A stretch of 64,000 bases of DNA from Candidatus Omnitrophica bacterium UBA6249. Its GTDB lineage: Bacteria; Omnitrophota; Gorgyraeia; Gygaellales; Profunditerraquicolaceae. Below are positions 15,478-50,638 of this stretch, in pieces; positions within the stretch are counted from its first letter, which is position 1; every line of letters starts with the position of its first letter. The DNA lies in the NCBI GenBank assembly GCA_002441305.1, contig DJVT01000009.1, positions 12,839-76,838 on the forward strand, written 5' to 3'. The position numbers and the translations under genes were made by a program. The notes under the pieces are model-generated. The model was not told the origin of the DNA, ran no database searches, and was given only the letters and a program-made list of their open reading frames with translations.

Positions 15478-16653
15478 GTGAAAAATATGAATAAAGACAA
15501 TATTGCTCAAAACAATCAGACTTTTTACGGATTGGGTATCGCTCCCAAGATACTGGATATTCTGGAGCGCATAAAATTCAAGACACCTACTCCTATACAG
15601 TTTAAAGCTATCCCGCTGGCCATATCCGGCAAGGATATCGTTGGAATAGCGCAGACTGGTACCGGGAAAACGCATTCGTTCCTTATTCCGATGGTTCAGC
15701 GCCTGGTGCAGAAGGAGGGGGTGGGCCTGGTGCTTGCGCCTACAAGGGAGCTGGCTATCCAGATACACGAAGCCTGCCAGCCGTTAGCCTGCGCTTTCGG
15801 CATGAAAACAGCCTGCCTTATCGGGGGAGCCCCTATGGAACCGCAGGTGCATGCTTTGCGTAAAGATCCCCGCATGGTAATTGCCACTCCGGGCAGGCTG
15901 ATCGACCATATGTCGCAGTGGAATTTCATTCCGGATAATGTGGTAATGCTTGTGCTCGATGAGGCGGACCGTATGCTCGATATGGGGTTTGCCCCGCAGA
16001 TAGACAAGATACTGCGTTTTCTCCCCCGGGACAGGCAAACTATGCTTTTTTCGGCGACTATGCCCAAGGAAATCATGAATATCGCCTCGCGCCATATGAA
16101 GCTTCCTTTAAGCGTGGAGATAGCCCCGTCGGGTACCACCGCGGAAAAGGTGACGCAGGAATTGTTCATCTTAAAGAAGGAAGCCAAACCGCGCTTGCTT
16201 AAACAGCTGCTTTCGCAGTACCACGGTTCGGTGCTCCTTTTTTCGCGCACCAAGTATAACGCCAGGAAGATTGTCAGGTCTATACGCGAGATGGGGCATT
16301 CCGTTTCCGAGATCCATTCGAACCGTTCTCTCGTCCAGCGTAAAGATGCCCTCGAAGGTTTCCGGTCGGGTAAATACAGGATCCTGGTCGCTACGGACAT
16401 AGCCTCGCGCGGCATAGACGTAACCGGGATAGAATTGGTGCTCAACTACGACCTTCCGGAAGACGCGGATAATTATGTGCACCGTATAGGCAGGACAGCC
16501 CGAGCGGGCCATAAAGGACATGCTATCTCTTTCGCCACTCCCGATCAGGAAAGGGATGTGCGGGAAATAGAAAAACTCATTAAGGCCAACCTTCCGGTTT
16601 CCAAACATTCCGATATCACATTAGACAAATTCTCTAAAAAACGGCAGAGATAA
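15478..16653 (+). CDS. DEAD-box ATP-dependent RNA helicase
   Basis: Q motif, AQTGTGKT, DEAD, SAT and HRIGRTARAG. The last codons overlap a solo repeat arm. Confidence 0.9.
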   Translation: MKNMNKDNIAQNNQTFYGLGIAPKILDILERIKFKTPTPIQFKAIPLAISGKDIVGIAQTGTGKTHSFLIPMVQRLVQKEGVGLVLAPTRELAIQIHEACQPLACAFGMKTACLIGGAPMEPQVHALRKDPRMVIATPGRLIDHMSQWNFIPDNVVMLVLDEADRMLDMGFAPQIDKILRFLPRDRQTMLFSATMPKEIMNIASRHMKLPLSVEIAPSGTTAEKVTQELFILKKEAKPRLLKQLLSQYHGSVLLFSRTKYNARKIVRSIREMGHSVSEIHSNRSLVQRKDALEGFRSGKYRILVATDIASRGIDVTGIELVLNYDLPEDADNYVHRIGRTARAGHKGHAISFATPDQERDVREIEKLIKANLPVSKHSDITLDKFSKKRQR

Positions 16654-16700
16654 TTCTTTTCTAACCCTCTGAATATGAATACCTTGGATAAACTGTCTAC
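16647..16700 (+). repeat. Solo right arm of the two-box repeat (contains the MFS start codon)
   Basis: Inner GAGATAATTCTTTTCTAAC at 16647..16665, a 17-nt linker, then outer-like CTTGGATAAACTGTCTAC ending at 16700. No matching left arm is seen upstream. Confidence 0.6.
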
Positions 16701-24893: not shown

Positions 24894-25655
24894 ATGAAGA
24901 ATTTCAGGCTTATCCGTTCTATCCCCCAAAACGCGCAATACAATATGTCCTTCGATGAGAATATGTTTTTCCGTTATGCAGAGGACGGTATCCCGTCATT
25001 CCGCGTGTACGGATGGGACGGGCCGGCTTTTACTTATGGGGCCGGGCAGCATCCTGAAGGGCAGCTTGATCTCGAGAGGTGTTCGCGCGACGGGGTCCGG
25101 GTCGCAAAGAGGATCACCGGCGGTGGCGTGTTGTTCCACCATCGCGAGATTACTTATAGCCTTGTCTGTTCCAAGGAGGATATAGGAGAGGACGAGAGGT
25201 CGCTTGTTTCTTACAGGCAGGTCTGCGCCTTTTTGATAGAATTCTACAAATCTCTCGGTCTGGAGCCGCGTTTTGCGCTTGAGGCCGAAGGCTTCCGTGA
25301 CAAGTCGCTTCCGCACCCTTTGTGCAGCGCATCGCACGAAAAATACGATATTGTCATCGGCAGAAGGAAGATAGGCGGCAATGCGCAGAAGCGCAGGAGA
25401 AGAGTGGTATTTCAGCATGGTTCTATACCTGTAGCAATAGATTGGTCAATTCCTTCCAGGTACGTGTTGGATATGCCGGAGGGAATCTCTTCAGGAGCTA
25501 CTTCCCTGGAGGAGGAATTAAAAAGCGTTCCGGAAAGCCGGGAGCTTGAGCGCCTGCTTATAGATTCCTTTGCTGCAGCTTACGGAGTTGATTTTCTTAA
25601 AGAGGGCGAAGTGGAAGGCGAGAGGAATGTTTGTTTTGTAACTCAAGGAATATGA
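24894..25655 (+). CDS. Lipoate-protein ligase / octanoyltransferase family protein (LplA/LipM-like)
   Basis: BPL_LplA_LipB-type catalytic domain (RITGGGVLFHH..., RKIGGNAQKR). Sits between gcvP and lipA. The last codons lie inside a solo repeat arm. Confidence 0.65.
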   Translation: MKNFRLIRSIPQNAQYNMSFDENMFFRYAEDGIPSFRVYGWDGPAFTYGAGQHPEGQLDLERCSRDGVRVAKRITGGGVLFHHREITYSLVCSKEDIGEDERSLVSYRQVCAFLIEFYKSLGLEPRFALEAEGFRDKSLPHPLCSASHEKYDIVIGRRKIGGNAQKRRRRVVFQHGSIPVAIDWSIPSRYVLDMPEGISSGATSLEEELKSVPESRELERLLIDSFAAAYGVDFLKEGEVEGERNVCFVTQGI

Positions 25656-25677
25656 AGAAGTTGAATAAACTGTCTAC
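25624..25677 (+). repeat. Solo right arm of the two-box repeat (spans the lipoyl-ligase-like/lipA junction)
   Basis: Inner GGAATGTTTGTTTTGTAAC at 25624..25642, a 17-nt linker, then outer-like GTTGAATAAACTGTCTAC ending at 25677. No matching left arm is seen upstream. Confidence 0.6.
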
Positions 25678-37375: not shown

Positions 37376-37954
37376 ATGAAAATAGGCGTTATCGGCGGGA
37401 CGTTTAACCCCGTACATATAGGCCATCTGATACTTGCGGAAGAGGCAAGGGAAAAACTGGGGCTGGATAAGGTAATCCTTATCCCCACGGCTATGCCTCC
37501 GCATAAAGATGCCTCCGGGATCGCTCCCGCGGAAGACCGGCTTAAAATGCTTAAGCTGTCCGTAAAGGGGAATAAATTCTTCTCCGTTTCGGATATGGAG
37601 ATCAGGCGCCGGGGTCGTTCTTATACAATCGACACGCTGAGGGAGTTGAAACGCAGGTTTGCCCGCGATGAGATATATTTTATTATCGGGTCGGATCTGT
37701 TAAAGTACCTGAATGAGTGGAAAGACCTGGGGCAGATACTTGAGATGGTCAAGTTCGTCGCTGCGACGCGCCCGGGGTACCCTCTTGAGCAGATACCGGA
37801 TTGCATAGATACTATACCTATCCGAGCGGTGGATATTTCGGGTTTTGAGGTAAGAGAGTGTGTGCTTAAGGGCAGGTCGTTCCGTTACCTGGTACCCGAA
37901 GCAGTTTTTAACTACATAACCAAAAACAAACTGTACAGTAGACAGTTTACGTAA
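37376..37954 (+). CDS. nadD: Nicotinate-nucleotide adenylyltransferase
   Basis: GGTFNPVHIGH motif. ATG 37376 is preferred over the listed TTG 37367. The last 5 codons and the stop lie in the repeat outer box. Confidence 0.85.
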   Translation: MKIGVIGGTFNPVHIGHLILAEEAREKLGLDKVILIPTAMPPHKDASGIAPAEDRLKMLKLSVKGNKFFSVSDMEIRRRGRSYTIDTLRELKRRFARDEIYFIIGSDLLKYLNEWKDLGQILEMVKFVAATRPGYPLEQIPDCIDTIPIRAVDISGFEVRECVLKGRSFRYLVPEAVFNYITKNKLYSRQFT

Positions 37955-38060
37955 CTCTTTGATAATAATATTGTTACAAAACAAATATTCCCGGAACCTA
38001 CAAGGGGGTGTATTTCTTTTGTAACTATTGTATTTACATAATGTTATATAAACTGTCTAC
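37938..38060. repeat. Repeat unit A: empty two-box inverted-repeat element (123 bp palindrome-like)
   Basis: L arm: outer GTAGACAGTTTACGTAAC at 37938..37955, inner GTTACAAAACAAATATTCC at 37973..37991. A ~14-nt spacer follows. R arm: inner GGTGTATTTCTTTTGTAAC at 38007..38025, outer TTACATAA[TGTTATATAA]ACTGTCTAC at 38034..38060. Confidence 0.85.
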
Positions 38061-38069
38061 AATAATAGG

Positions 38070-38720
38070 ATGAAGATAAAAGTAGCGCCGTCAATACTGT
38101 CAGCTGATTTTGCCAATCTTGCCGCGGAGCTTAAGAAGATCGAGAAGGCGGGGGCGGATCTGGTGCATGTGGATATTATGGACGGCCACTTCGTGCCGAA
38201 TATAACCATAGGCCCGGTGGTGGTAAAATATATCCGCAAGGCGACAAGCCTTCCGCTGGATGTCCACTTGATGATCGAGAACCCGGCAAAATATATAGAC
38301 GCCTTTGTTTCTGCCGGAGCGGACATGATCACTGTGCACGTAGAGACGCTTACGCTTCGCACGCTGGCAGCGATAGCGGATGGCTTGAAGAAGAGAAAGG
38401 TTAAACTTGGCATCTCTTTGAATCCTCCGACGCCGTTCAGCAAAATTAAAAAGGCCCTGCCTTATGTAGATTTTGTCCTGGTAATGTCGGTGAATCCGGG
38501 TTTCGGCGGGCAGGCATTTATTCCGTCTGCTTTGGACAAGATAAGGCAGCTGCGCGTCGTCTTTAAGAAGGATATCGCCGTGGACGGCGGGATAAACAGC
38601 ATTACCGGTAAACTGGTCAGGGAGGCGGGGGCGAATGTCCTGGCCGCCGGTTCTTATATTTTCGGTGCCACAGACACTAAAAAAGCAATCAACAGTTTAA
38701 GAGAAGGAGAGCTTCGATGA
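38070..38720 (+). CDS. rpe: Ribulose-phosphate 3-epimerase
   Basis: APSILSADF, HVDIMDGHFVPN and MSVNPGFGGQ blocks. Confidence 0.9.
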   Translation: MKIKVAPSILSADFANLAAELKKIEKAGADLVHVDIMDGHFVPNITIGPVVVKYIRKATSLPLDVHLMIENPAKYIDAFVSAGADMITVHVETLTLRTLAAIADGLKKRKVKLGISLNPPTPFSKIKKALPYVDFVLVMSVNPGFGGQAFIPSALDKIRQLRVVFKKDIAVDGGINSITGKLVREAGANVLAAGSYIFGATDTKKAINSLREGELR

Positions 38721-40108
38721 GCAATGCAACTGCGCAAATCAAATTCGGGACCGATGGATGGAGGGCGATCATCGCCGATACCTATACCCTGGAGAACGTG
38801 AAGATATTGAGCCAGGCGGTGGCGGATTACCTGGGCAGCGGTAAAAAAGTGGCAGTGGGTTATGATACGCGTTTTATGTCCGCCAAATTCGCCGAGGCCG
38901 CCGGGGCAGTGTTGAAGAATAACGGCATGGAGGTGGTTCTTTCCGACAGGCCGACCCCTACGCCGGCATTGAGCTTTATCGTCAAATCCCGCAAGCTTGA
39001 CCTGGGGATTATGATTACCGCTTCGCATAACCCGGCCGAATATAACGGTTTCAAGATCAAGAATGCCGCAGGAGGCGGGGCGAGCCAGGAGCTGACCAGG
39101 CAGGTCGAGGCTTTATTATGCAAGAATCCGGTTAAGGATGCCGCTCTTGCCGAGCCTCTTGTTACGACGGATATTACCAAGGATTACATAAAATTCATCC
39201 GCGGTTATGTTGACCTTAAAAAAATCAAGAATAAGAAATTTAAAGTGCTGGTCGATTCCATGTACGGTTCGGGCGACAGCTTTATCGCCCAGGTGCTCAA
39301 AGGCACGAGCATTAAGCTGGAGTTTATGCGTAATACTATCAATCCCTCTTTTGGCGGGGGCAGGCCGGAGCCGATAGAGGAGAACTTGAAAGAGCTTAAG
39401 GAGCGCGTAAAAAAGGAGAAATTTGACCTGGGTATTGCCCTGGACGGGGATGCGGACAGGATTGCCGCGGTAGCCCCCGGAGGCGTGTTTATCCATCCGC
39501 AGAAAATACTGGGCTTGCTTGCCCTGCATTTGAACCAGGACCGTCACTGGAGCGGCGGGCTGGTCAAGACCATCTGCGGTACGACGATGATGGACAATAT
39601 CGCAAAATTCCTGGGGATCAAGCTTTACGAGACCCCGGTAGGGTTTAAATACATATCCAATCTTATGGAGACCGAGGATATCGTCGCCGGAGGTGAAGAG
39701 GCGGGCGGTATGGGCGTAAAAGGCTATATACCCGAGCGTGACGGGACTATGGCCGGGCTCCTGCTTATCGAGATGATGGTTTACCGCAACAAGAATATAC
39801 TCAAGATCCTGAATGAGACCGAGGAGAAATTCGGCAAATATTATTATGTGCGCCAGGATTTCCATCTGGCAAAAAGAGTGGAGCCGAAGAAAGAGAATCT
39901 TCCCGCCGAGCTCTTGGGCAAGAAGGTTGTCGACGTCAAAGATTACGACGGCGTGAAGCTGATCTGCGAGGATGAAAGCTGGCTGATGTTCCGCGGTTCC
40001 GGCACCGAGCCGATTATGCGTACCTACGCGGAGGCAAAAAGCCTGGCCCGGGCCAGGAAACTGCTCGCCGTGGGTAAAGAAATAATCCTTAAGGATGTAC
40101 AGATTTAG
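38717..40108 (+). CDS. Phosphoglucomutase/phosphomannomutase family protein
   Basis: Phosphoserine loop TASHNPAEYNGFK and Mg site LDGDADR. Confidence 0.85.
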   Translation: MSNATAQIKFGTDGWRAIIADTYTLENVKILSQAVADYLGSGKKVAVGYDTRFMSAKFAEAAGAVLKNNGMEVVLSDRPTPTPALSFIVKSRKLDLGIMITASHNPAEYNGFKIKNAAGGGASQELTRQVEALLCKNPVKDAALAEPLVTTDITKDYIKFIRGYVDLKKIKNKKFKVLVDSMYGSGDSFIAQVLKGTSIKLEFMRNTINPSFGGGRPEPIEENLKELKERVKKEKFDLGIALDGDADRIAAVAPGGVFIHPQKILGLLALHLNQDRHWSGGLVKTICGTTMMDNIAKFLGIKLYETPVGFKYISNLMETEDIVAGGEEAGGMGVKGYIPERDGTMAGLLLIEMMVYRNKNILKILNETEEKFGKYYYVRQDFHLAKRVEPKKENLPAELLGKKVVDVKDYDGVKLICEDESWLMFRGSGTEPIMRTYAEAKSLARARKLLAVGKEIILKDVQI

Positions 40109-40682
40109 CAGATTTATAATTCTGGTAATACTGAAGATTTTTTTCAGGTTCAAAGTGGAAGGCAGGGAGAACATCCCCGAAAGAGGAGGTTTTATTCTTG
40201 TCTCCAATCATATAAGCTATCTTGATCCGCCCGCCGTAGGTTCGGCCTGCCGGCGGCCGGTGCATTTTATAGCCAGGGATAACCTGTTCGATATCCCGTT
40301 GTTGAAATTCTGGCTTAAGGCGGTGGGGGTAATCCCGCTTAAAAGGGATTCCGCGGATACGTCCGCGATAAAGAAAGGATTGAAGGTTTTGCGTAACGGC
40401 GAGGGGCTTGCATTGTTTCCTGAGGGTACACGCAGGAGTAAAGAGGATAGATACTTGAATCCCGAGCCGGGAGCTGGTTTTTTGGCGGCAAAGGGAGGCG
40501 TGCCGGTAATCCCGGCATTTGTCTCCGGAACGGATGAAGCTTTGCCGCGCCATGCGCATTCGCTGCGTTTGACCAAGATACACGTGCGCCTGGGAAAAGA
40601 AATTCTTATAGAAAGGGGGAAGCCTTATCAGGAAATCTCCGACTTGATAATGGCTAAGATAAAAGAATTATCGAATAACTGA
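40095..40682 (+). CDS. plsC: 1-acyl-sn-glycerol-3-phosphate acyltransferase
   Basis: HX4D motif NHISYLD and FPEGTRR. Confidence 0.85.
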   Translation: MYRFSRFIILVILKIFFRFKVEGRENIPERGGFILVSNHISYLDPPAVGSACRRPVHFIARDNLFDIPLLKFWLKAVGVIPLKRDSADTSAIKKGLKVLRNGEGLALFPEGTRRSKEDRYLNPEPGAGFLAAKGGVPVIPAFVSGTDEALPRHAHSLRLTKIHVRLGKEILIERGKPYQEISDLIMAKIKELSNN

Positions 40683-40737
40683 TACGAAAAACGCATAGAA
40701 TAAAAAATAAAAATAAAAAGAAAGGAAGTATCTGAAA

Positions 40738-42282
40738 ATGTCAAGTACTACGAGAGAAGAATTGGAGCAGTTGTATAACCAGAGCATCAAAGAAATGAAA
40801 GAGGGCCAGGTGGTCACGGGTAAGATCGTGGGCATCAAGAATAAAGAGGTCCTGGTGGATGTCGGTTTTAAATCCGAAGGGATAGTCCCGATCACGGAGT
40901 TCAATACCGCTGACCTTGAGATGGGCAGAGAGATGGAGTTCCTCCTGGAGAATATGGAGAATGACGCCGGGGTAATGACCCTTTCCCGCGAGAAGGCGAT
41001 GCGTATGCAGGGCTGGGACAAGATCGTAAAGATCTCCAACGAAGGTTCCCTGGTGGAAGGCAAACCGGTCAAGAAGGTAAAGGGCGGTTTTCTCGTGGAT
41101 ATCATGGGTATCGAAGGCTTCCTGCCCAGTTCCTTGTCCGCTTTCCGCAATATACCCGATAAGGATATCCTGTATAAGGTATTCAAGTTCAAGATCGTCA
41201 AGGTAAACAACCTGCGCCGCAGCATCATCGTCAGCCGCCGTGAAGCGGTACAGGCGGACAGGGACTTGGCCAAGAGCAAGATCTGGAGCGAGCTTAAGAT
41301 CGGCAACATCTATCCCGGCACGGTCAAGGCGATTACCGATTTCGGAGCCTTCATCGACCTGGGCGGGGTGGACGGGCTTTTGCATATCACCGATATGTCC
41401 TGGTCCAAGATCAGCCATCCGAGCGAGATCGTGGCTATCGGGGACAAGATCGAGATCATGGTCCTGAATATGGACCAGGCCTCGGGCAAGGTATCCTTAG
41501 GCCTCAAGCAGAGGCAGGCGGATCCCTGGCAGGATATCGAGAACAAGTTCAGCGTCGGCGCCAAGGTTAAGGGCAAGGTGGTCAATATCCTTCCTTACGG
41601 TATCTTCGTGGAGCTGGAGAAGGGGATCGAGGGATTGGTGCATGTCTCGGAGATCTCCTGGACCAAGCGCGTGAACAATCCCGGAGAGATGTTCGCCGTA
41701 GGCGATATACTGGAGACCCAGATACTCAGCGTGGAGAAGGATTCGCGCAGGATATCCTTGAGCCTTAAACAGCTCGAGCAGAATCCGTGGACCGAGGCGG
41801 AAGCCAAGTACCCGGTGGGTTCCACTGTATCGGGCAAAGTGCGCGGTTTTACGGATTACGGCGCATTCGTGGAGCTGGATTCCAACCTGGAAGGGATGAT
41901 CCATGTTTCCGACCTTTCCTGGACCAAAAGGATCGGGCATCCGCAGGATGTATTGAAAAAAGGCCAGAAGGTGGACGTTTATGTACTTTCGGTCGATGCC
42001 TCAAGCCGCAGGATCGCCCTGGGGTTAAAACAGCTGCAGGAGAATCCCTGGCCGAAGATCGCCGAGAAGTATCCTCTGGATACGGTGTTGGAAGCCGAGG
42101 TATCCAGCATTACGGAGTTCGGGGTATTCGCGAATATCGACAGCGAGCTGGAAGGGTTGATTTATTCTAGCGAGATAGATAAAGAAGCGGTTGCCAACCT
42201 GAAACCGGGTGATAAGGTAAACGTCAAGATAATCAAGGTCGACGTGGAGCAGGCAAAAATCGGCCTGACTGCGCGCCTTTAA
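40738..42282 (+). CDS. rpsA: 30S ribosomal protein S1
   Basis: 514 aa made of six tandem S1 (OB) repeats. Confidence 0.9.
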   Translation: MSSTTREELEQLYNQSIKEMKEGQVVTGKIVGIKNKEVLVDVGFKSEGIVPITEFNTADLEMGREMEFLLENMENDAGVMTLSREKAMRMQGWDKIVKISNEGSLVEGKPVKKVKGGFLVDIMGIEGFLPSSLSAFRNIPDKDILYKVFKFKIVKVNNLRRSIIVSRREAVQADRDLAKSKIWSELKIGNIYPGTVKAITDFGAFIDLGGVDGLLHITDMSWSKISHPSEIVAIGDKIEIMVLNMDQASGKVSLGLKQRQADPWQDIENKFSVGAKVKGKVVNILPYGIFVELEKGIEGLVHVSEISWTKRVNNPGEMFAVGDILETQILSVEKDSRRISLSLKQLEQNPWTEAEAKYPVGSTVSGKVRGFTDYGAFVELDSNLEGMIHVSDLSWTKRIGHPQDVLKKGQKVDVYVLSVDASSRRIALGLKQLQENPWPKIAEKYPLDTVLEAEVSSITEFGVFANIDSELEGLIYSSEIDKEAVANLKPGDKVNVKIIKVDVEQAKIGLTARL

Positions 42283-42296
42283 AGTTAGAATGACTG

Positions 42297-42337
42297 CTGC
42301 CGCGGGCCGGGAATGTCCCGGTTCCGGCGGCAGTTTA
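42297..42337 (+). terminator. Possible intrinsic terminator after rpsA
   Basis: Nested GC-rich hairpin: CTGCCGC (42297..42303) pairs with GCGGCAG (42327..42333), and an inner CCGGGA/TCCCGG stem lies inside. It is followed by only a short TTTA run. Confidence 0.4.
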
Positions 42338-42343
42338 TAAAAG

Positions 42344-43510
42344 ATGAAAAACGTCGAAGAACAGCTTAAGCTTATCAGGCGCGGGGTAGTAGAGGTAATC
42401 TCCGGGGATGAATTGCGCAAGAAGCTTGAGTGGAGCGTTAAGTCCGGGCGCCCGTTGAAGGTAAAAGCGGGATTCGACCCTACCGCTCCTGACCTGCACC
42501 TGGGGCATACCGTGCTTCTGAGGAAGCTGCGCCAGTTTCAGGATCTGGGGCATGAGGTATATTTCCTGATCGGCGATTTTACCGGCCGTATAGGGGATCC
42601 CACAGGGCGTTCGGAGATCAGGAAACAGCTTACCAGGCAGGAGGTAGCCAAGAATGCCAGGACTTATAAGAAACAGGTTTCCAAGATCCTGGACGTAAAG
42701 AAGCTGAAGATAGTCTTTAACAGCAGGTGGTTTGAGCGCATGCAGGTAGCCGATATGCTCAAACTTACTACGCTTGCCTCGGTTTCCCAGATGCTTGCCC
42801 GGGAGGATTTCAAAAAGCGTTATTCCCAGGGCGAGAATATCTCCATCCTCGAGTTCATTTATCCTCTTATGCAAGGCTATGATTCGGTTATGCTCAAGGC
42901 AGATATCGAGCTCGGCGGGACGGACCAGATATTCAACCTTTTGGTAGGGCGCGACCTGCAAAAGGATTTTAACCAGCACCAGCAGGTGGTCCTGACCATG
43001 CCCCTCCTGGAAGGCACCGACGGCGTGCAGAAGATGAGCAAGTCGTACGGGAACTATATCGGCATAAACGAGACCGCAAAAGAAATGTTCGGCAAGGTGA
43101 TGTCGGTCTCCGATGAGCTGATGCTCAAGTACTACGAGCTGCTTACCGACGAGGACATGGATGCGGTAAAGAAGATGCATCCCAGGGAGGCCAAGGTAAA
43201 ACTGGCCAAGATTATCATTACGCAGTACCATTCGGCGCAGGCGGCAGAAAAAGAGGCGGCGGAGTTTACTCGCGTATTCTCCCAAAAGGAAGTGCCGCAG
43301 GATATGCCGGTTTTTAAGGCCAGCGGCAAAAAGAGCGTATTGGCTATCCTCCTGGAGAGCAAGCTTGTCGCCAGCGGCAACGAGGCGCGCCGCCTGATCA
43401 AGCAGGGCGCGGTAAGCTTCAACAACGTAAAAATAGACAAAGATGACTTTATCCCCGGCGAGCCGGGTATCCTCAAGGCCGGTTCCCGCCGCTTCCTCAA
43501 AATCCTGTAG
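42344..43510 (+). CDS. tyrS: Tyrosyl-tRNA synthetase
   Basis: HIGH-type [13 protein letters not shown], and a C-terminal S4-like domain. The TAG stop is the TAG of the repeat head GTAG. Confidence 0.9.
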
Positions 43511-43622
43511 ACAGTTTACGTAACTCCATATCCTTCACTTAGATCCAAAAGAAATATTCCCATACTTAAAAATAATTCCGTTAGACTCATCTTCCTTTTT
43601 CGTCAATTGCGGTAAAAGGAGG

Positions 43623-44315
43623 ATGACCATGCCGTCACATGCGCGCAGGCACCAGTTGCAGCAATCGTTGGTATATCATGCATTCAGCAGAAGCAGCGGG
43701 CGCAGGGAGATTTTTCATAACTCCCGGGACTTCGCATACTTCAAGAAATTAATCAAGGATTATACAGATAAATTTGGGATCAGTGTGTATCATTGGGTGA
43801 TCATGCCGAATCATTACCATCTTGTTCTTGAGCTTGATGTTCCTGAATCGATCTCCGGTTTTATGGCAGGATTGCACCGGGCGTATAGCCATTATTACTG
43901 CAGGAGATACGATACGGTGGGATTCTTGTGGCAGGGGAGATTCAAATTACAGCCGGTGCAGAAAGAGGCGTATTTGAAGAATTGCGGCAGGTATGTGGAA
44001 AGGAATCCGGTGCGTTCCGGGTTCGTTAAAGAGGCCTGTGAATATAACTATGGCAGCGCGCGATTCTATTGTTTGGGAGAAGAGGACGGGATAACAAAAA
44101 TGAGCCCTTATTTCGATGAATTCGGGAATAATATCAGGGCCAGGCAGGTGGCCTATAAAGAGTTCTTAAGCGTCCTTGACCGGGGGGATGAAGATCGTTT
44201 TTCCGGTGCGGGTATTATTTGCGGCGATAAGGTTTTTATCGGGAAACTGGTAAAAATGAACGGGCATTATTTTCCGAGAAGGAGCGGAAGAAGAAGGCTT
44301 TCTGGAGAGAGTTAA
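43623..44315 (+). CDS. REP-associated tyrosine transposase (RAYT; IS200-like Y1/HUH transposase family)
   Basis: HUH motif in MPNHYHLVL, WQGRF block, and the catalytic-Tyr context RYVERNPVR. AAAGGAGG RBS precedes the start. Confidence 0.8.
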   Translation: MTMPSHARRHQLQQSLVYHAFSRSSGRREIFHNSRDFAYFKKLIKDYTDKFGISVYHWVIMPNHYHLVLELDVPESISGFMAGLHRAYSHYYCRRYDTVGFLWQGRFKLQPVQKEAYLKNCGRYVERNPVRSGFVKEACEYNYGSARFYCLGEEDGITKMSPYFDEFGNNIRARQVAYKEFLSVLDRGDEDRFSGAGIICGDKVFIGKLVKMNGHYFPRRSGRRRLSGES

Positions 44316-44356
44316 TTTATCTTTATTTCCCCTCCGTTTGGATATATAATCAAAAC

Positions 44357-44626
44357 ATGTTCTGGACTTTTATCGGGGCGCTCGCCGCTACCTTAACCAT
44401 GTTTTCATTTATTCCCCAAATAGCCAAATCCATGCGGACAAGGTCTGTTAAAGATGTGAGCCCGGTTACTTTGTTCCAGCTTTCTACGGGAGTATTTCTC
44501 TGGATGGTGTATGGCTTTGCGCGCAAGGACCCTATAATAATCGGGGCTAACCTGATTACCTTCGCCAGCCTTACGGTGCTCATTTTCCTATACTTTAAAT
44601 ATAAAAGGATAAAAGTTTCTTCATAG
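44357..44626 (+). CDS. SemiSWEET / PQ-loop small membrane transporter
   Basis: 89 aa with three TM helices and a PQ motif (FIPQIAKS). Confidence 0.7.
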   Translation: MFWTFIGALAATLTMFSFIPQIAKSMRTRSVKDVSPVTLFQLSTGVFLWMVYGFARKDPIIIGANLITFASLTVLIFLYFKYKRIKVSS

Positions 44627-44700
44627 CCGGAGTATTTCTTTTACAACTTTATATAAATCAACGGATTACATAAACTGTCTACGGAGCTGCGGAGCAGGGG

Positions 44701-45564
44701 ATGAAGGGGATAATTTTAGCGGGGGGAAGGGCTACAAGATTATATCCGATCACCAAGAGTGTCTGTAAGCAGATGCTTCCTGTTTACGACAAGCCGATGA
44801 TATACTATCCTTTGTCGGTGTTGATGCTCGCCGGGATAAAGGACATCCTGCTTATCTCTTCCTCCAAAGAGCTCCCCAGGTTCAAGGACCTGCTGGGAAG
44901 CGGAAAAGACCTGGGCATCAGGATCTCTTATGCGGAGCAAAAAAAGCCGGAAGGGATCGCCCAGAGCCTGATTATAGCCGAGGATTTTATCGGCAGGGAC
45001 AGTATCTGTCTTATCCTGGGGGATAACATCTTCTACGGCTACAACCTGGTCAAACTTCTTCAGAACCACGCCAAATTGAAAAAGGGTGCGGTTGTCTTCG
45101 GCTACTGCGTGAAAGACCCCGCCCGCTACGGGGTATTCAAGTTCGACAAAAAAGGGCAAGTTGCCTCGATAGAAGAAAAACCCGCCCACCCCAAGTCCAG
45201 CTGGGCTGTTTCAGGGCTGTATTTTTACGACAACGATGCGCCTAAAATCGCCAAAAGGATAAAACCGTCCGCAAGGGGGGAGCTTGAAATTACCTCGGTA
45301 AATAATGAATATATAAAAAGAGGGGGGCTGAAGGCTGAGTTCCTCGGCCGGGGGCACGCCTGGCTCGATACAGGGACTTATGAATCCCTCATCGATGCCT
45401 CCGTGTTCATCAAGACCATCGAGGAGCGGCAAGGGCTGAAGATCGGGTGCATAGAAGAAGTCGCTTACCGGATGAAATATATAAACAAAGGCCAGCTTAT
45501 CAGGCTTGCAAAGAGGATGCCCGCTGCCTACGGGAACTATTTAAGGAACCTGTCCCGAGAGTGA
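44701..45564 (+). CDS. rfbA: Glucose-1-phosphate thymidylyltransferase
   Basis: GIILAGGRATRLYPIT N-terminus and RmlA-type blocks throughout. Confidence 0.9.
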   Translation: MKGIILAGGRATRLYPITKSVCKQMLPVYDKPMIYYPLSVLMLAGIKDILLISSSKELPRFKDLLGSGKDLGIRISYAEQKKPEGIAQSLIIAEDFIGRDSICLILGDNIFYGYNLVKLLQNHAKLKKGAVVFGYCVKDPARYGVFKFDKKGQVASIEEKPAHPKSSWAVSGLYFYDNDAPKIAKRIKPSARGELEITSVNNEYIKRGGLKAEFLGRGHAWLDTGTYESLIDASVFIKTIEERQGLKIGCIEEVAYRMKYINKGQLIRLAKRMPAAYGNYLRNLSRE

Positions 45565-46406
45565 GAAAAAACATACTTGTTTTAGGAAAAGGTTTTATCG
45601 GAGAAAGGATAGGCAGGGAGCTTGGCTGCCGGGTCTCCGGCGCAGTGATAAATTCTTTTAGCGATGCGGATAGGCTGCTCGGCCGCTACAGGCCTGAGAT
45701 AGTGATTAACTGCATCGGCTCCAGCGGAAGGCGCAATGTCGATGACTGCGAGGAGGATAAAGAGGCGACTTTGCTTGCCAACAGCTTTATTCCGTTGATG
45801 CTTGCCGAGGCCTGCCTGCGCCGGGGGATCAAGCTCGTGCATATCAGTACCGGCTGCATCTTCAATTTCGATTACAGAAAAGATAAGCCTATCAAAGAAG
45901 GGGAAAGGAATTATTTTCTCAAGCTGTTCTACAGCCGCAGCAAGATTTATTCCGAGGCCGCTCTCGAGGCCCTTTCTGCAAAAGCGGGCATACTTATCCT
46001 CAGGATCAGGATACCCTTGCTCGATGAAAGCCACCCCAGGAATATTCTGGACAAGCTTGTTAAATACGAAAAGATTGTCGATGTCCCAAACTCGGTGACC
46101 TATCTGCCTGATTTTATCAGGGCGTTAAAACATTTGATTGGGGTTGGCGCAGTAGGGGTGTATAATGTAGTGAATAAAGGCGGCCTGCGTTATTCCGAGC
46201 TGATGAAGGTTTACCGGAAGTATCTGCCCGGGCCGGATTTTAAGTTTGTCTCTGTGCGCAAACTTCCTTTAACCAGGACAAACCTGCTTTTGTCTGTCGC
46301 CAAGCTTGAGAGAACGGGTTTTAAGGTCAGAGATATCCATTCCGTTCTTGACGAATGCCTCAAGCATTATGTAGACAGTTTACGTAACCCTGTTAAACAT
46401 AAGTAA
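45561..46406 (+). CDS. RmlD-like NAD(P)-dependent sugar-nucleotide reductase (divergent dTDP-4-dehydrorhamnose reductase-like)
   Basis: Rossmann LVLGKGFIG and YxxxK as YSRSK. GTG 45561 overlaps the rfbA stop (GTGA). The listed ORF start 45447 overlaps rfbA. The last 11 codons run through repeat arm C. Confidence 0.5.
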   Translation: MRKNILVLGKGFIGERIGRELGCRVSGAVINSFSDADRLLGRYRPEIVINCIGSSGRRNVDDCEEDKEATLLANSFIPLMLAEACLRRGIKLVHISTGCIFNFDYRKDKPIKEGERNYFLKLFYSRSKIYSEAALEALSAKAGILILRIRIPLLDESHPRNILDKLVKYEKIVDVPNSVTYLPDFIRALKHLIGVGAVGVYNVVNKGGLRYSELMKVYRKYLPGPDFKFVSVRKLPLTRTNLLLSVAKLERTGFKVRDIHSVLDECLKHYVDSLRNPVKHK

Positions 46407-47483
46407 TTACAAAAGAAATATTATGGGGAAGAAAAGACACAGCAGCGTTTTAGTTACCGGCGGGGCCGGATTTATCGGCAGCGCCTTTGTCCGGCTTCTG
46501 GCGGAGCAGGGAGTTCCCGTTGCCGTCTTGGACAAGCTTACTTATTCGGGGGATCTGAAGCGCCTTGAAGGTACAGGCGGCAGGTTCAGGTTTTACAAAA
46601 CCGATATCTGTAATAAGAGGGCAGCAGGTGCGGTCTTTGCCAGCGAAAGGCCAGACACAGTGGTGCATTTTGCCGCAGAGAGCCATGTTGACCGCAGTAT
46701 CAAGGACGCTGCGCCATTTATCGAGACCAATATCAAGGGCACTCAGGTGCTTCTCGATGTAAGCCGTAAATACAGCGTAAACAGGTTTGTGTTTATTTCC
46801 AGCGATGAGGTCTATGGAGAGATTGCCGACGGTAAGTTTAAAGAGGACTTTCCCCTTAAACCGAACAGCCCTTATGCCGCATCCAAGGCTGCGGCGGATC
46901 TCCTGGTGCAGGCTTATATCAGGACGAATAAATTTCCCGCGATAATCGTAAGGCCGTCAAATACCTATGGCCCATGGCAATACCCGGAAAAGCTGATCCC
47001 GCTTGCCATACTCAGGATACTCGGGAAGGAAAAAGTTCCGGTTTACGGGAAAGGCAAGAATATACGCGAATGGCTGTATATCGACGATTGCGTGCGCGGT
47101 ATCGCGGAAATTATGGACAAAGGCAGGCTCGGGCAGATCTATAATCTGGGCGGTTCATGCGAAAGCAGGAATATAGATACGGTCAAACTTCTCTTGAGGC
47201 TGCTCGGGGAAAAGGCGGACAGGTTCAAATTTGTGAAAGACCGGCCGGGCCATGATATAAGATACAGCTTAAACTCCGGGAAGGCGGCGAAAGAACTCGG
47301 CTGGAGGCCTAAGGTAAAACTTGCCGAAGGGCTTAAATCGACCGTAGCCTGGTCGCTCGGCCACAGGGATTGGCTGAAGAGTAAGCTGGCGGACGTAAAC
47401 AAACTGTACGGTAAATAGTGCTGCGATAGGGAATGTTTCTTTTGTAACTTTATAATATCAAGCTGGTTACATAAACTGTCTAC
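46371..47483. repeat. Repeat unit C: rfbB bracketed by the two-box inverted arms
   Basis: L outer GTAGACAGTTTACGTAAC at 46371..46388; L inner TTACAAAAGAAATATT at 46407..46422, abutting ATG 46423. R inner GGAATGTTTCTTTTGTAAC at 47430..47448; R outer GTTACATAAACTGTCTAC at 47466..47483. Confidence 0.75.
46423..47418 (+). CDS. rfbB: dTDP-glucose 4,6-dehydratase
   Basis: TGGAGFIGS, HFAAESHVDRS, SSDEVYG and YAASKAAAD. Confidence 0.9.
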   Translation: MGKKRHSSVLVTGGAGFIGSAFVRLLAEQGVPVAVLDKLTYSGDLKRLEGTGGRFRFYKTDICNKRAAGAVFASERPDTVVHFAAESHVDRSIKDAAPFIETNIKGTQVLLDVSRKYSVNRFVFISSDEVYGEIADGKFKEDFPLKPNSPYAASKAAADLLVQAYIRTNKFPAIIVRPSNTYGPWQYPEKLIPLAILRILGKEKVPVYGKGKNIREWLYIDDCVRGIAEIMDKGRLGQIYNLGGSCESRNIDTVKLLLRLLGEKADRFKFVKDRPGHDIRYSLNSGKAAKELGWRPKVKLAEGLKSTVAWSLGHRDWLKSKLADVNKLYGK

Positions 47484-47487
47484 AAAA

Positions 47488-48552
47488 ATGGCAACGGTTA
47501 TTGTTACAGGTTCATGCGGGTTAATCGGTTCTGAGACGGTAAGCTTCTTTGCCGACAAGGGCTTCGATATCGTCGGTATCGATAACAATATGCGCAGGAA
47601 TTTCTTCGGCTCCGACGGTTCGGTGCTCTGGAACCGGAAACGCCTGCAGAAGCTGCATAAGAATTACCGCCATTATTCCGTGGATATCCGGGATTCCGGT
47701 AAAATAAATTCTTTGTTCAAGAAATACTCCAAAGACATAGCCCTGATCGTGCATGCGGCTGCCCAGCCTTCGCATGACTGGGCGGCAAGGGATCCTGAGG
47801 TTGACTTCGGGGTGAATGCCCAGGGGACGCTGGTCATGCTTGAGGCCGCGCGTAAGTTTTCTCCGTGGGCAGTATTTATCTTTACTTCTACGAACAAGGT
47901 CTACGGCGATACGCCGAACCGCCTGCCGCTGGTTGAGAAAGAGAAGCGTTTTGAGATTGCCGACAGCCATCAGTATTCCAAAGGCATAGATGAATCCATG
48001 AGCATAGATAACTGCCTGCATTCCGTGTTTGGCGCTTCCAAGGTTGCCGCCGATATCATGGTGCAGGAGTACGGCAAATATTTCCATCTGCGCACAGGCG
48101 TATTCCGCGGGGGCTGCCTTACCGGCCCGGCGCACTCCGGGGCGGAGCTGCACGGTTTTCTGTCCTACCTGGTGAAATGCTGCGTGACCGGACGCAAATA
48201 CAAAATCTACGGTTACAAAGGAAAGCAGGTCAGGGACAATATCCATTCTTACGACCTGGTGAATGCCTTTTACCATTATTTCCAGAATCCACGCTGCGGA
48301 GAGGTTTACAATATGGGCGGCGGCAGGTTTGCCAATGTTTCCATCCTTGAGGCCATCGAGTTGTGCGAGAAATTAAGCGGCAGCAGGCTGTCTTATGACT
48401 ATGTAGACACCAACCGTATCGGAGACCATATCTGGTGGGTAAGCGACGTCTCCAAATTCAAGTCGCACTATCCTTCCTGGCAGTATGCCTTCAATATTGA
48501 ATCCACTCTTTCCCAAATCATAGACAGTGTACGTAACTCCATAAAATACTAA
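47488..48552 (+). CDS. NAD-dependent epimerase/dehydratase (CDP-paratose 2-epimerase-like)
   Basis: Rossmann TGSCGLIGS and [12 protein letters not shown]. The expected YxxxK reads FGASK. The last 10 codons run through repeat arm D. Confidence 0.65.
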
Positions 48553-49204
48553 TAGTTACAAAACAATTATTCCATGATGCTGCGTTAGATTATTCCTCTT
48601 TCTGCGTCTATTGACGTTAGAAAGGAGAGAATATGAGTAAAAGAATAGCTTCTGTGGAGGTTGTGGCGGGTAAGATTATATTACTAAGAGGGAAAAGGGT
48701 AATGTTGGATTCTGACTTAGCGGAGCTATATGGGGTAAAAACATTTAACTTTAACAAAGCCGTTAAACGCAATATAAGGCGTTTCCCGGAAGATTTTATG
48801 TTTCAACTTACCACGGAGGAATATAGGAACTTGATATTCCAAAATGGAAGGTCAAGATGGGGCGGCAGGCGATATGCTCCTTATGTTTTTACTGAGCAAG
48901 GCGTAGCCATGTTATCCAGCGTGCTCAAATCGAAGCGGGCTATTGAAGTTAACATAGCAATAATGCGTGCTTTCGTGAAGTTACGGGAGTTATTATTGAC
49001 ACATAAAGAATTAGCAAAAAAGATTGAGGAGTTAGAGCGTAAGTACCAACTGCATGAAACGGACATTCAGACAATATTTGAGGTAATTAAAAAACTTCTT
49101 GAGCCTCCGCAGAAACCTCCTAAACCGCGATTCGATATAAATTAATGATACGAATAGATTTTTTATAATTTCATAGGAATGATAAGGTTACGTAAACTGT
49201 CTAC
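48520..49204. repeat. Repeat unit D: ORF6N-domain gene bracketed by the two-box inverted arms
   Basis: L outer ATAGACAGTGTACGTAAC at 48520..48537; L inner GTTACAAAACAATTATTCC at 48555..48573. R inner (degenerate) GAATAGATTTTTTATAAT at 49152..49169; R outer GTTACGTAAACTGTCTAC at 49187..49204. Confidence 0.75.
48633..49145 (+). CDS. ORF6N-domain (KilA-N-related DNA-binding) protein
   Basis: [18 protein letters not shown]...[21 protein letters not shown]...[18 protein letters not shown] is the typical ORF6N pattern. C-terminal coiled coil. Confidence 0.7.
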
Positions 49205-49211
49205 ATAAATA

Positions 49212-49240
49212 TTGACAGGGAGAGGGGATGAAAGTAAGAT
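49212..49240 (+). promoter_or_regulatory. Possible sigma70-like promoter for the 49272 gene
   Basis: TTGACA (49212..49217), 17-nt spacer, TAAGAT (49235..49240), just after the R outer box of unit D. Confidence 0.35.
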
Positions 49241-49271
49241 AAATAAATAAACTTTAGCTAAGGGCAGATAG

Positions 49272-50315
49272 ATGAGATATAGAAACATACTGATTACCGG
49301 AGGGGCCGGGTTCGCGGGGAGCAACCTGGCTGTGTATTTTAAAGAGAGGTATCCTAAAACAGAAGTCTTTTCCCTGGATAACCTTGTCCGAAGGGGCAGT
49401 GAATTCAACCTTCCCAGGCTAAAGAAGGCCGGGGTTAAGTTTATCCGGGGAGACGTCAGGCGGCCAAAAGACCTTGATTTTATACCCGGTATCGACCTGG
49501 TGATAGAATGCTCTGCCGAGCCCTCGGTTTTGGCAGGATATGAAAAGCCCGCTTATATTATCGATACCAACTTGAACGGTACGGTAAACTGCCTTGAGTT
49601 TTGCCGCAGACGCAAAGCGGATATTATCTTTATCTCCACCAGCAGGGTATACCCTTACGACAGGATAAACGCGATCGGGCGCAGAGAGAAGGCAACCCGG
49701 TTTGAATGGAAGGATTTTTCCGGAGTTGGAACGGGTTTTCCGCTCACCGGCCTGCGCACATTGTATGGGGCGACCAAGCTTTCCTCGGAACTTATCCTCC
49801 AGGAGTATGCGGCGGCATACGGGTTTAAATCGGTAGTCAACCGTTGCGGGGTGCTGGCCGGGCCGTGGCAGTTCGGCAAAGTTGATCAGGGGGTATTTAC
49901 ATACTGGATGCTGGCGCACTATTTCAAAAGGCCGCTTAAATATATCGGCTTTGGCGGCGAGGGCAAGCAGGTGCGCGACCTCCTGCACGTAGATGACCTG
50001 TGCAGCCTGGTGGATATGCAGGCGGGTATCCTGGATAAAATAAACGGCAATACGTATAATGTCGGCGGGGCGGGCGAGGTGAACCTTTCTCTCCTTGAGG
50101 CCACCGGATTATGCCGCAAGATCACCGGCAACAAGATCAAAATCGGCAGCGATAAACGCAACCGCCCGGGAGATATCGCAATCTACATTACGGATAATCG
50201 TGAAGTTACCCGGCAGCTAAAGTGGAAGCCTCGCAAGCAGCCTGTTGCGATCCTGAAAGATATCTTCGGCTGGATCAGGAGGCATGAGCCGATGCTGAAG
50301 AAGCTGATAATGTAG
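49272..50315 (+). CDS. NAD-dependent epimerase/dehydratase (CDP-paratose/tyvelose 2-epimerase-like)
   Basis: ITGGAGFAGSNL, YGATK and SLDNLVRRGS blocks. The TAG stop is the TAG of the repeat head GTAG. Confidence 0.65.
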   Translation: MRYRNILITGGAGFAGSNLAVYFKERYPKTEVFSLDNLVRRGSEFNLPRLKKAGVKFIRGDVRRPKDLDFIPGIDLVIECSAEPSVLAGYEKPAYIIDTNLNGTVNCLEFCRRRKADIIFISTSRVYPYDRINAIGRREKATRFEWKDFSGVGTGFPLTGLRTLYGATKLSSELILQEYAAAYGFKSVVNRCGVLAGPWQFGKVDQGVFTYWMLAHYFKRPLKYIGFGGEGKQVRDLLHVDDLCSLVDMQAGILDKINGNTYNVGGAGEVNLSLLEATGLCRKITGNKIKIGSDKRNRPGDIAIYITDNREVTRQLKWKPRKQPVAILKDIFGWIRRHEPMLKKLIM

Positions 50316-50638
50316 ACAGTTTATGTAACTCTATGATAATATAGCAGTTACAAGATAAATATTACCGGTTTAAACACAGCAGGAGGCTATCGGGGAGGGC
50401 GCATGAGCGACGAAGGCGGGTTCCTGGTGAAGTTTGACAACAAAAAATCGCTTCGTTGTTACAAGATTGAATTCGATTACGATGAATACCGGTATGTGAT
50501 TAACGGCAAGGAAAAACACAAGCTTCCCCCGCGTGTAAAAGAGATCAATATCAAGGTCGAAGGTTAGCTGCCGGCGTATCAGGAGGAGTAATTCTTTTGT
50601 AACCTATGAGGCCTTAGATAGTTACGTAAACTGTCTAC
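50312..50638. repeat. Repeat unit E: 54-codon ORF bracketed by the two-box inverted arms
   Basis: L outer GTAGACAGTTTATGTAAC at 50312..50329; L inner GTTACAAGATAAATATTACC at 50347..50366. R inner GGAGTAATTCTTTTGTAAC at 50585..50603; R outer GTTACGTAAACTGTCTAC at 50621..50638. Confidence 0.75.
50403..50567 (+). CDS. Small hypothetical protein (54 aa) inside repeat unit E
   Basis: Translated by hand: MSDEGGFLVKFDNKKSLRCYKIEFDYDEYRYVINGKEKHKLPPRVKEINIKVEG. AGGAGG/GGGAGGG lie upstream. It is not in the ORF track and I recognise no homology. Confidence 0.3.
   Translation: MSDEGGFLVKFDNKKSLRCYKIEFDYDEYRYVINGKEKHKLPPRVKEINIKVEG

Follow-up and report, generated by a model that had tools for sequence, protein, structure and literature searches.

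A probable REPtron/REPIN-RAYT system in a Candidatus Omnitrophota genome

The 64-kb stretch of a Candidatus Omnitrophota genome that was analysed here (hereafter the window) carries, between tyrS and a group of rfb genes, one gene for a REP-associated tyrosine transposase (RAYT; REP, repetitive extragenic palindromic sequence), together with a family of 54-nt repeats, which we call arms, located at the junctions between genes (Table 1). Left and right arms in inverted orientation bound five units of 123, 1176, 1113, 685 and 327 bp, and these contain, in this order, no gene, the RAYT (Y1_Tnp) with a SemiSWEET transporter gene, the dTDP-glucose 4,6-dehydratase gene rfbB, a gene with an ORF6N domain, and a 54-codon open reading frame (ORF). 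The positions of these ten arms, the unit sizes and the unit contents had been given in a preliminary description of the DNA and proved correct; as a correction, the right-hand boxes ending at 38060 and 44682 have two mismatches each, and that ending at 47483 has one. Immobile RAYT genes bordered by inverted REPs are known as REPtrons, and the Escherichia coli enzyme, TnpAREP, cleaves and rejoins single-stranded DNA of REPs and of bacterial interspersed mosaic elements (BIMEs; PMC3333891; PMC6006769; PMC5581495).

Each arm consists of two boxes, box 2 following box 1 after exactly 17 nt. With up to 3 mismatches allowed, box 1 (GTAGACAGTTTACGTAAC) has 11 occurrences in the window; for box 2 (GTTACAAAAGAAATATTCC) there are 10, while shuffled sequences lead one to expect 0.00 and 0.01, respectively. 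In total, the 64 kb hold 12 arms with none expected. Aligning 137 distinct arms yielded the consensus RTAGACAGTnTAYRTAAY, followed by nnnnT, 12 further nt and RTTAYrwAAsAAATAy, the head being either GTAG or ATAG. Mean pairwise identity in this set reaches 0.85 in box 1 (a value inflated for the copies found with box 1 as search seed), 0.69 in box 2 and 0.39 in the linker, compared with 0.27 in the flanks. The linker is thus variable, as initially described, but it is not free, since its fifth base is T in 94% of the arms, a figure that, like that of box 2, is independent of the seed; moreover, linkers are kept within subfamilies and at orthologous sites. Box 2 is degenerate, ATTATAAAAAATCTATTCG, in the arm that ends at 49204. 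The reported strict alternation of left and right arms holds between 37938 and 50638, where perfect alternation of ten independent orientations has a probability of 2/1024; beyond this segment it breaks down, as two additional arms, at the lplA/lipA and DEAD-helicase/MFS junctions, both have the right orientation.

The enclosed gene encodes a Y1/HUH transposase. Its product matches PF01797 with 56.4 bits (cut-off 23; E 4e-15), and its best NCBIfam model is that of the REP-associated tyrosine transposases (REP_Tyr_transpos, 66.8 bits); the IS200 model scores 22.4 bits (cut-off 55). These profile matches confirm the original assignment of the gene as a RAYT. The sole relative of solved structure is E. 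coli TnpAREP (PDB 4ER8), with a weak match (E 1.5e-3). The HUH motif is H64-Y65-H66 and the catalytic tyrosine is Y124, within RYVERNP (Y-x-E-R-N-P). Both catalytic motifs, as well as several residues of a C-terminal extension, are invariant among 22 homologues that are 51-65% identical to the window RAYT. At E <=1e-5 there are 329 homologues, all of about 228 aa, and the named ones all belong to Omnitrophota; each homologue cluster is seen on approximately one contig. Given this, together with the invariant residues, the RAYT gene is intact, present in single copy and under purifying selection.

The association of the arms with the transposase extends well beyond the window. All lineages examined have a left arm on one side of RAYT and a right arm on the other, and the order tyrS-arm-RAYT-arm is kept in 10 lineages. 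A RAYT with 57% identity (P0062) resides in an unrelated context, among RHS and aconitase genes, where it likewise lies between a left and a right arm. Another one, with 52% identity (P0069; locus L158, 675-1547), lies between DEAD-helicase and MFS genes; the arms on either side of it are laid out in the same way, except that AAGACGC replaces GTAGACAG as their head. A canonical GTAGACAG doublet is also present on this contig, at lplA/lipA. Co-variation of the repeat head with the enzyme clade is what is expected for cognate RAYT/REP pairs (PMC3116915; PMC6006769), and in this one example the arm head indeed appears to track the RAYT clade. The earlier proposal, which saw in the arms the RAYT's cognate repeats, is hence supported by the PF01797 match, by the flanking arms in all lineages, and by the AAGACGC heads that accompany the 52% clade. 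The helicase/MFS junction of the window (15478-17916), orthologous to the P0069 site, retains a single weak arm, which suggests that the window lineage has lost a second REPtron there.

Table 1. Arms and selected genes of the window (coordinates in nt; L numbers denote loci of relatives).
Feature	Position	Strand	Basis and remarks
Degenerate single arm, DEAD-helicase/MFS junction	16650..16700 (approx.)	-	nhmmer E 1.9e-4; exact GTAGACAG head; synteny with L158
Single arm, right orientation, lplA/lipA junction	25624..25677	-	box 1, box 2 and arm profile
Left arm of empty 123-bp doublet (REPIN-like), nadD/rpe	37938..37991	+	boxes, arm profile
Right arm of 123-bp doublet	38007..38060	-	boxes, arm profile
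Left arm of RAYT unit, RAYT-left subfamily, divergent box 2	43507..43560	+	boxes, arm profile
RAYT, Y1/HUH transposase, 230 aa	43623..44315	+	PF01797, NCBIfam, 4ER8, invariant motifs
SemiSWEET transporter gene	44357..44626	+	precedes rfbA in all relatives
Right arm closing 1176-bp unit, SemiSWEET/rfbA	44629..44682	-	boxes, arm profile
Left arm, rmlD/rfbB	46371..46424	+	boxes, arm profile
rfbB (dTDP-glucose 4,6-dehydratase)	46423..47418	+	TIGR01181, 398 bits; same position in relatives without left arm
Right arm, rfbB/epimerase-1	47430..47483	-	boxes, arm profile
Left arm, epimerase-1/ORF6N, ATAG head	48520..48573	+	boxes, arm profile
ORF6N-domain gene, accessory	48633..49145	+	PF10543, E 3e-35
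Right arm after ORF6N, box 2 degenerate	49151..49204	-	box 1, arm profile
Left arm, epimerase-2/small ORF	50312..50365	+	boxes, arm profile
54-codon ORF, GGAGG ribosome-binding site	50403..50567	+	after epimerase-2 in four lineages
Right arm before nadE	50585..50638	-	boxes, arm profile

When one genome per species was scanned for box 1, 35 loci were obtained, and the full two-box arm was present in 15 assemblies, all of them metagenome-assembled genomes of Candidatus Omnitrophota. Genomes from outside this phylum matched in box 1 only, about as often as the pattern would turn up by chance. The metagenome scan matched at least 120 loci, and among the matches listed 45 have a true two-box arm. 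A phage-borne element was rejected, as 27 viral contigs match box 1 and none of them carries the two-box arm. The literature searched contains no mention of such repeats for the phylum Omnitrophota.

Besides single arms, we found 27 distinct inverted doublets, in at least 18 unrelated genomic contexts. They fall into two length classes, of 119-120 bp and 136-140 bp; the gap between the classes corresponds to about two helical turns. A doublet joins one arm of the RAYT-left subtype to one of the RAYT-right subtype, and sometimes includes 10 nt of the RAYT 3' end, which is why the doublets can be regarded as RAYT units minus the gene. No target-site duplication was seen in 18 of 25 doublets, and none was consistent in the remaining ones, as expected for HUH enzymes. 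The window doublet (37938-38060) folds as a long hairpin, with z-scores of -5.0 as DNA and -6.2 as RNA. The linkers of doublet partners are no more similar to each other than random linkers.

Mapping the window proteins and the arm profile onto all loci revealed a common gene row in 10 lineages, proA-nadD-[doublet]-rpe-pgm-(acyltransferase)-rpsA-tyrS-[L RAYT R]-...-SemiSWEET-rfbA-rmlD-rfbB-epimerase-1-epimerase-2 (L and R, left and right arm). At several of its junctions the arms persist: the left arm between tyrS and RAYT is found in all 10 lineages and always provides the tyrS stop codon, the nadD/rpe doublet recurs in L003, L032 and L143, an arm occupies the SemiSWEET/rfbA junction of L005 and L063 as it does in the window, and the left arm after epimerase-1 has orthologues in L009, L069, L146, L105 and L170. 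Other junctions differ between lineages. At lplA/lipA, where the window has a single arm, L045 also has a single one and L120, L158 and L076 have a doublet; the right arm between rfbB and epimerase-1 is shared with L013 only and is absent from L009, L020 and L170; and the left arm between rmlD and rfbB is confined to the window species, since L005, L009, L013, L020, L028 and L170 lack an arm there and their rmlD and rfbB overlap. In relatives an arm lies directly after RAYT and encodes its last residues, whereas the window has no arm at this place, the 41 nt up to the next gene being devoid of any remnant; hence SemiSWEET comes to lie "inside" the RAYT unit. Arms have thus been gained and lost around unchanged genes, and rfbB is 69-78% identical to its relatives, which is comparable to its neighbours. 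The 54-codon ORF follows epimerase-2 in four lineages, with or without arms. Hence rfbB, SemiSWEET and the 54-codon ORF are resident genes and not cargo. The suggestion of gene-sized cargo, bracketed by the arms and moved by them, did not survive this comparison for rfbB and SemiSWEET; six lineages have rfbB in place without a left arm, and synteny and identity led us to reject it as an exchanged gene.

Three further observations concern the gene row itself. Gene co-orientation is extreme, all ORFs with a family assignment being on the + strand across the 64 kb. In L020 (6418-6502), an unrelated perfect 22-bp hairpin (GGGACCGTTTCTATTTTCCTAG...CTAGGAAAATAGAAACGGTCCC) stands between the epimerase genes, where others have an arm. 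Two strain-level assemblies of the window species (L160 and L161; 99% identity) are collinear with the window from 33.6 to 50.07 kb, and both, although independent, stop inside epimerase-2, at about 50047-50074, some 240-265 nt before the arm at 50312; the shared end point hints at strain variation or at a downstream repeat.

Taken together, we consider a REPtron/REPIN-RAYT system (REPIN, REP doublet forming a hairpin) to be the best explanation of the locus, with a probability of roughly 0.7. The RAYT is domesticated and is inherited vertically at a fixed locus in Omnitrophota. On this explanation, the single-copy gene between tyrS and the rfb genes has its cognate bipartite arms, inverted, on either side; the inverted doublets of about 120 or 140 bp would be REPIN-like non-autonomous copies, that is, RAYT units without the gene; and single arms also occur, wedged tightly into intergenic junctions. 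Like TnpAREP in E. coli, RAYT would cut and rejoin single-stranded arm DNA, and would in this way spread, maintain or reshuffle the arms. The "gene-carrying units" of the window would mostly be pairs of arms at successive junctions of a conserved gene row. Sequence comparison establishes that there is such a repeat family, that it goes with the RAYT, that it is dispersed over genomic contexts, that it is old, and that arms turn over at gene junctions.

Several observations weigh against this explanation. The 66.8 bits obtained with REP_Tyr_transpos fall short of the NCBIfam cut-off of 80. Single arms have no stable or common fold as single-stranded DNA (-0.7 to -5.8 kcal/mol), and box 1 and box 2 do not covary, Watson-Crick counts being equal to the expectation under independence; hence the classical palindromic REP, needed by TnpAREP, is absent here. 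Likewise, the partner arms of doublets show no covariation, and their variable positions match no more often than those of shuffled partners. Ten of the 12 window arms lie within 7 kb of the RAYT. At best, two window arms agree at 11 of their 17 linker positions, which gives no indication of recent spread within this genome. Finally, a host function could also explain why arms have been kept for so long at orthologous junctions.

Some of these results bear on particular models of the arm. A hairpin within the arm, pairing the YRTAAY end of box 1 with the RTTAYR start of box 2, was rejected, as the folds are weak and inconsistent and covariation is absent; a selected doublet hairpin was rejected on the result with shuffled partners. 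The divergent linkers indicate that the window arms are old and not recent copies, and recent within-genome copying was discarded accordingly. Since neither a stable fold of single arms nor covariation was detected, the constraint acts on two sequence boxes at a fixed spacing and not on a hairpin, which suggests that each arm may be read as sequence by a protein, most likely by the RAYT with its conserved C-terminal extension. E. coli TnpAREP, for its part, requires the REP hairpin, the mismatch in its stem, and the GTAG (PMC3333891). The Omnitrophota system thus lacks a palindromic REP; its architecture, its inheritance and its pairing of enzyme and repeat are as in the E. coli and Pseudomonas systems.

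Arms also repeatedly bound small accessory genes that are not part of the conserved row; in relatives, the two arms of such a pair are frequently direct and not inverted. After RAYT, BrnT/BrnA (BrnTA) lies between two right arms (R-BrnTA-R) in 7-8 lineages; in L033, an HTH gene lies between a left and a right arm (L-HTH-R); and MNT/HEPN is found between direct arms (R-MNT/HEPN-R). A Fic gene is enclosed by two 98%-identical doublets (a 112-nt direct repeat), while at a GDSL-like gene (L-GDSL-L'R) the left arm is duplicated together with 9 nt of flank; a PD-(D/E)XK gene, and a PIF1 helicase gene together with a small neighbouring ORF that lacks a family assignment, are arm-bounded as well. The additional arms that follow BrnTA and HTH include 10 nt from the 3' end of RAYT, and L170 contains a row of modules separated by arms of the same orientation. 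ORF6N, which encodes a protein of about 170 aa with more than 8000 homologues at E <1e-20, is 70-83% identical across Omnitrophota and multi-copy, with 2 copies in some loci. Between epimerase-1 and epimerase-2, a full copy with both arms is present in the window, L146 and L170, and a remnant with both arms in L105; the gene is absent from L009 and L069, which have the left arm only, and from L020. Its arms are inverted in the window, L146 and L170, direct in L163 (R-ORF6N-R), and missing in JAQURC01. Many ORF6N contigs measure only 658-763 nt, about one unit, which suggests that a repeated unit breaks or collapses in assembly.

One strain-level difference involves such a module directly. L005 (5242-5250) and L063 (1525-2129) differ by a precise 604-nt BrnTA indel in the arm after RAYT, their sequences being identical from about 870 nt upstream and 99.9% identical downstream. 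Both junctions, GCA|CTGTCTAC and AAAGCCGCA|ATATTTG, are inside the arm, the first arm of L063 being cut down to CTGTCTAC, and an imperfect direct repeat of 9 nt, AAAGCYGCA, borders the indel. When all loci were compared with one another by BLAST, no further strain-level indel at arms came to light.

It would be possible that the arms are recombination sites of a RAYT-driven cassette system, which would turn the region into a cassette platform resting on an HUH (Y1) enzyme in place of a tyrosine recombinase. A small accessory gene would leave as single-stranded DNA together with one arm and go back in at another, in a manner resembling integron cassettes or the peel-and-paste of IS200/IS605. 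The repeated bounding of BrnTA, MNT/HEPN, Fic, GDSL, HTH and ORF6N genes, the same-orientation separators in L170, the BrnTA indel with both junctions inside an arm, the RAYT 3' end attached to the arms after BrnTA and HTH, and the short ORF6N contigs with their hint of an assembly-collapsing repeat would all be accommodated by such a system. If true, it would amount to an integron-like, HUH-based gain and loss of toxin-antitoxin, ORF6N and Fic genes beside a domesticated RAYT. However, rfbB, SemiSWEET and the 54-codon ORF are resident, and no unit of cargo plus arm was found in two genomic contexts; in particular, neither ORF6N nor the 54-codon ORF was found with its arms at a second site. 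The indel is the single polymorphism of its kind among all loci, and slippage or homologous deletion at AAAGCYGCA explains it. The ORF6N copies of JAQURC01 have no arms, and L033 (5341-6100) carries a zeta-toxin-like AAA gene and a 71-codon ORF between rmlD and rfbB, again with no arm, showing that accessory genes also enter the gene row independently of arms; such genes gather in variable regions anyway. Hence, we regard a cassette system as unlikely. The pattern fits arms being hot spots of gene gain and loss, whereas RAYT-mediated cassette movement is not what it shows; the arms themselves may have a part in the gain or loss of accessory genes.

A different possibility is that the arms are host-selected cis-elements, bound by an architectural or regulatory protein and serving as punctuation within rows of genes, and that their link to the RAYT is historical only. 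Arms do persist at orthologous junctions in lineages whose proteins are 65-85% identical, their boxes are conserved while the linkers drift, the 17-nt spacing is fixed, and the doublets come in two size classes. Furthermore, arms reach into coding sequences. Both tyrS (arm at 43507) and epimerase-2 (arm at 50312) take their stop codon from the TAG of the GTAG head, nadD ends with a TAA inside box 1 of the arm at 37938, rmlD extends 36 nt into the arm at 46371, so that its final 11 codons and stop are arm-encoded, and epimerase-1 extends 33 nt into the arm at 48520, which encodes its final 10 codons and stop; the ATG of rfbB sits in box 2 of the arm at 46371. Some arms also contain promoter-like TAGACA-16/17-GATAAT matches. 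Yet the presence of an arm at a given junction differs among lineages, the arm head co-varies with the RAYT clade, the doublets resemble miniature RAYT units, and Rfam gave no match at gathering thresholds in the whole window. Single arms show no orientation bias with respect to gene direction (23:19), right arms would drive antisense transcription, and the arms contain no terminator-like sites; on these grounds, a role as strand-specific promoter or terminator is unlikely. We therefore find host cis-elements an improbable explanation.

The arm-derived C-terminal tails of RmlD (VDSLRNPVKHK; 46371-46406) and of epimerase-1 (48520-48552) use the same frame of box 1. A promoter-like TTGACA-17-TAAGAT (window 49212-49240) is located 3' of the right arm that follows ORF6N and 5' of epimerase-2, and is kept in L146 (about 2085-2115).

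It is very improbable that the arms are terminal inverted repeats of a MITE (miniature inverted-repeat transposable element) or insertion sequence (IS) with a DDE transposase, or tyrosine recombinase sites of Xer/dif or integron attC type: the inverted 54-bp repeats alternate strictly between 37938 and 50638, the doublets are MITE-like and the arm-bounded toxin-antitoxin modules recall dif modules and integron cassettes, but target-site duplications are missing or inconsistent, among enzyme genes only that of the Y1/HUH transposase is enclosed time and again, arm pairs of both direct and inverted kind occur in relatives, box 1 on direct reading lacks the 11-6-11 layout of Xer-type sites, and Pfam finds no integrase or recombinase domain in the 51 window ORFs tested, nor do the precomputed Pfam assignments of neighbouring loci. 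Integron attC arrays and Acinetobacter pdif modules do resemble the locus, as both comprise short co-oriented genes, often of toxin-antitoxin type, between conserved imperfect-palindrome sites, and in dif modules the sites alternate in orientation as the arms do. They differ from it in the sequence and layout of their sites and in their tyrosine recombinase, and here core genes are also arm-bounded. Membership in either class, MITE/DDE-type IS or integron/Xer-type module array, was accordingly rejected, for the second class on Pfam domains and the layout of box 1, no attC model having been run.

As compared with the known systems, the REPtron/REPIN-RAYT explanation has a close counterpart in the E. 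coli REPtron, in which tnpAREP (yafM) is bordered by REPs/BIMEs (Ton-Hoang 2012, PMC3333891; Messing 2012, PMC3479197). In both, a single-copy Y1/HUH gene keeps a fixed place in the chromosome, between inverted copies of a repeat that also occurs elsewhere; both have a GTAG head, paired inverted repeats (BIME/REPIN) in addition to single ones, subtypes similar to y and z REPs, and a locus that toxin-antitoxin genes tend to replace or to accompany (PMC6006769). Unlike the E. coli REPs, which are imperfect palindromes of 30-40 nt with a stem mismatch needed for binding, the Omnitrophota arms are bipartite, 54 nt long and hairpin-less; they overlap coding ends, and their copy number, judged from the 64-kb window, is apparently low. 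The enzyme, of 228-230 aa, differs from TnpAREP by its conserved C-terminal extension and is only weakly similar to it. With the Pseudomonas REPIN-RAYT systems (Bertels and Rainey 2011, PMC3116915; Bertels 2017, PMC5581495) the locus shares inverted doublets, of which that of the window folds as a hairpin, a RAYT that is inherited vertically, apparently a separate repeat family for each RAYT clade, and long persistence at orthologous sites. In contrast to Pseudomonas, however, no covariation maintains the doublet hairpin, recent proliferation within the genome has left no sign, and the boxes are near-invariant over many species, whereas REPs usually differ between species. The catalytic core and the lack of target-site duplication are common to the IS200/IS605 family, but the Omnitrophota RAYT is single-copy and syntenic, is not accompanied by tnpB, and is bounded by inverted repeats instead of distinct left and right subterminal hairpins; together with the low IS200 score, this led us to reject membership in that family.

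RAYTs and REPINs offer the best example of a transposase whose domestication also took in its non-autonomous repeats, and they have been studied nearly exclusively in Proteobacteria. The locus described here would place the same partnership in Omnitrophota, an uncultured phylum with small genomes. Its stand-out features are the two sequence boxes at fixed spacing in place of a hairpin, the deep persistence of arms at junctions, and their overlap with stop and start codons. Hence, our findings challenge the view that the substrate of a RAYT must be a palindromic REP. Moreover, the arm-bounded toxin-antitoxin and ORF6N modules, along with the strain-level indel, make the shuffling of host genes by HUH enzymes a testable proposition.

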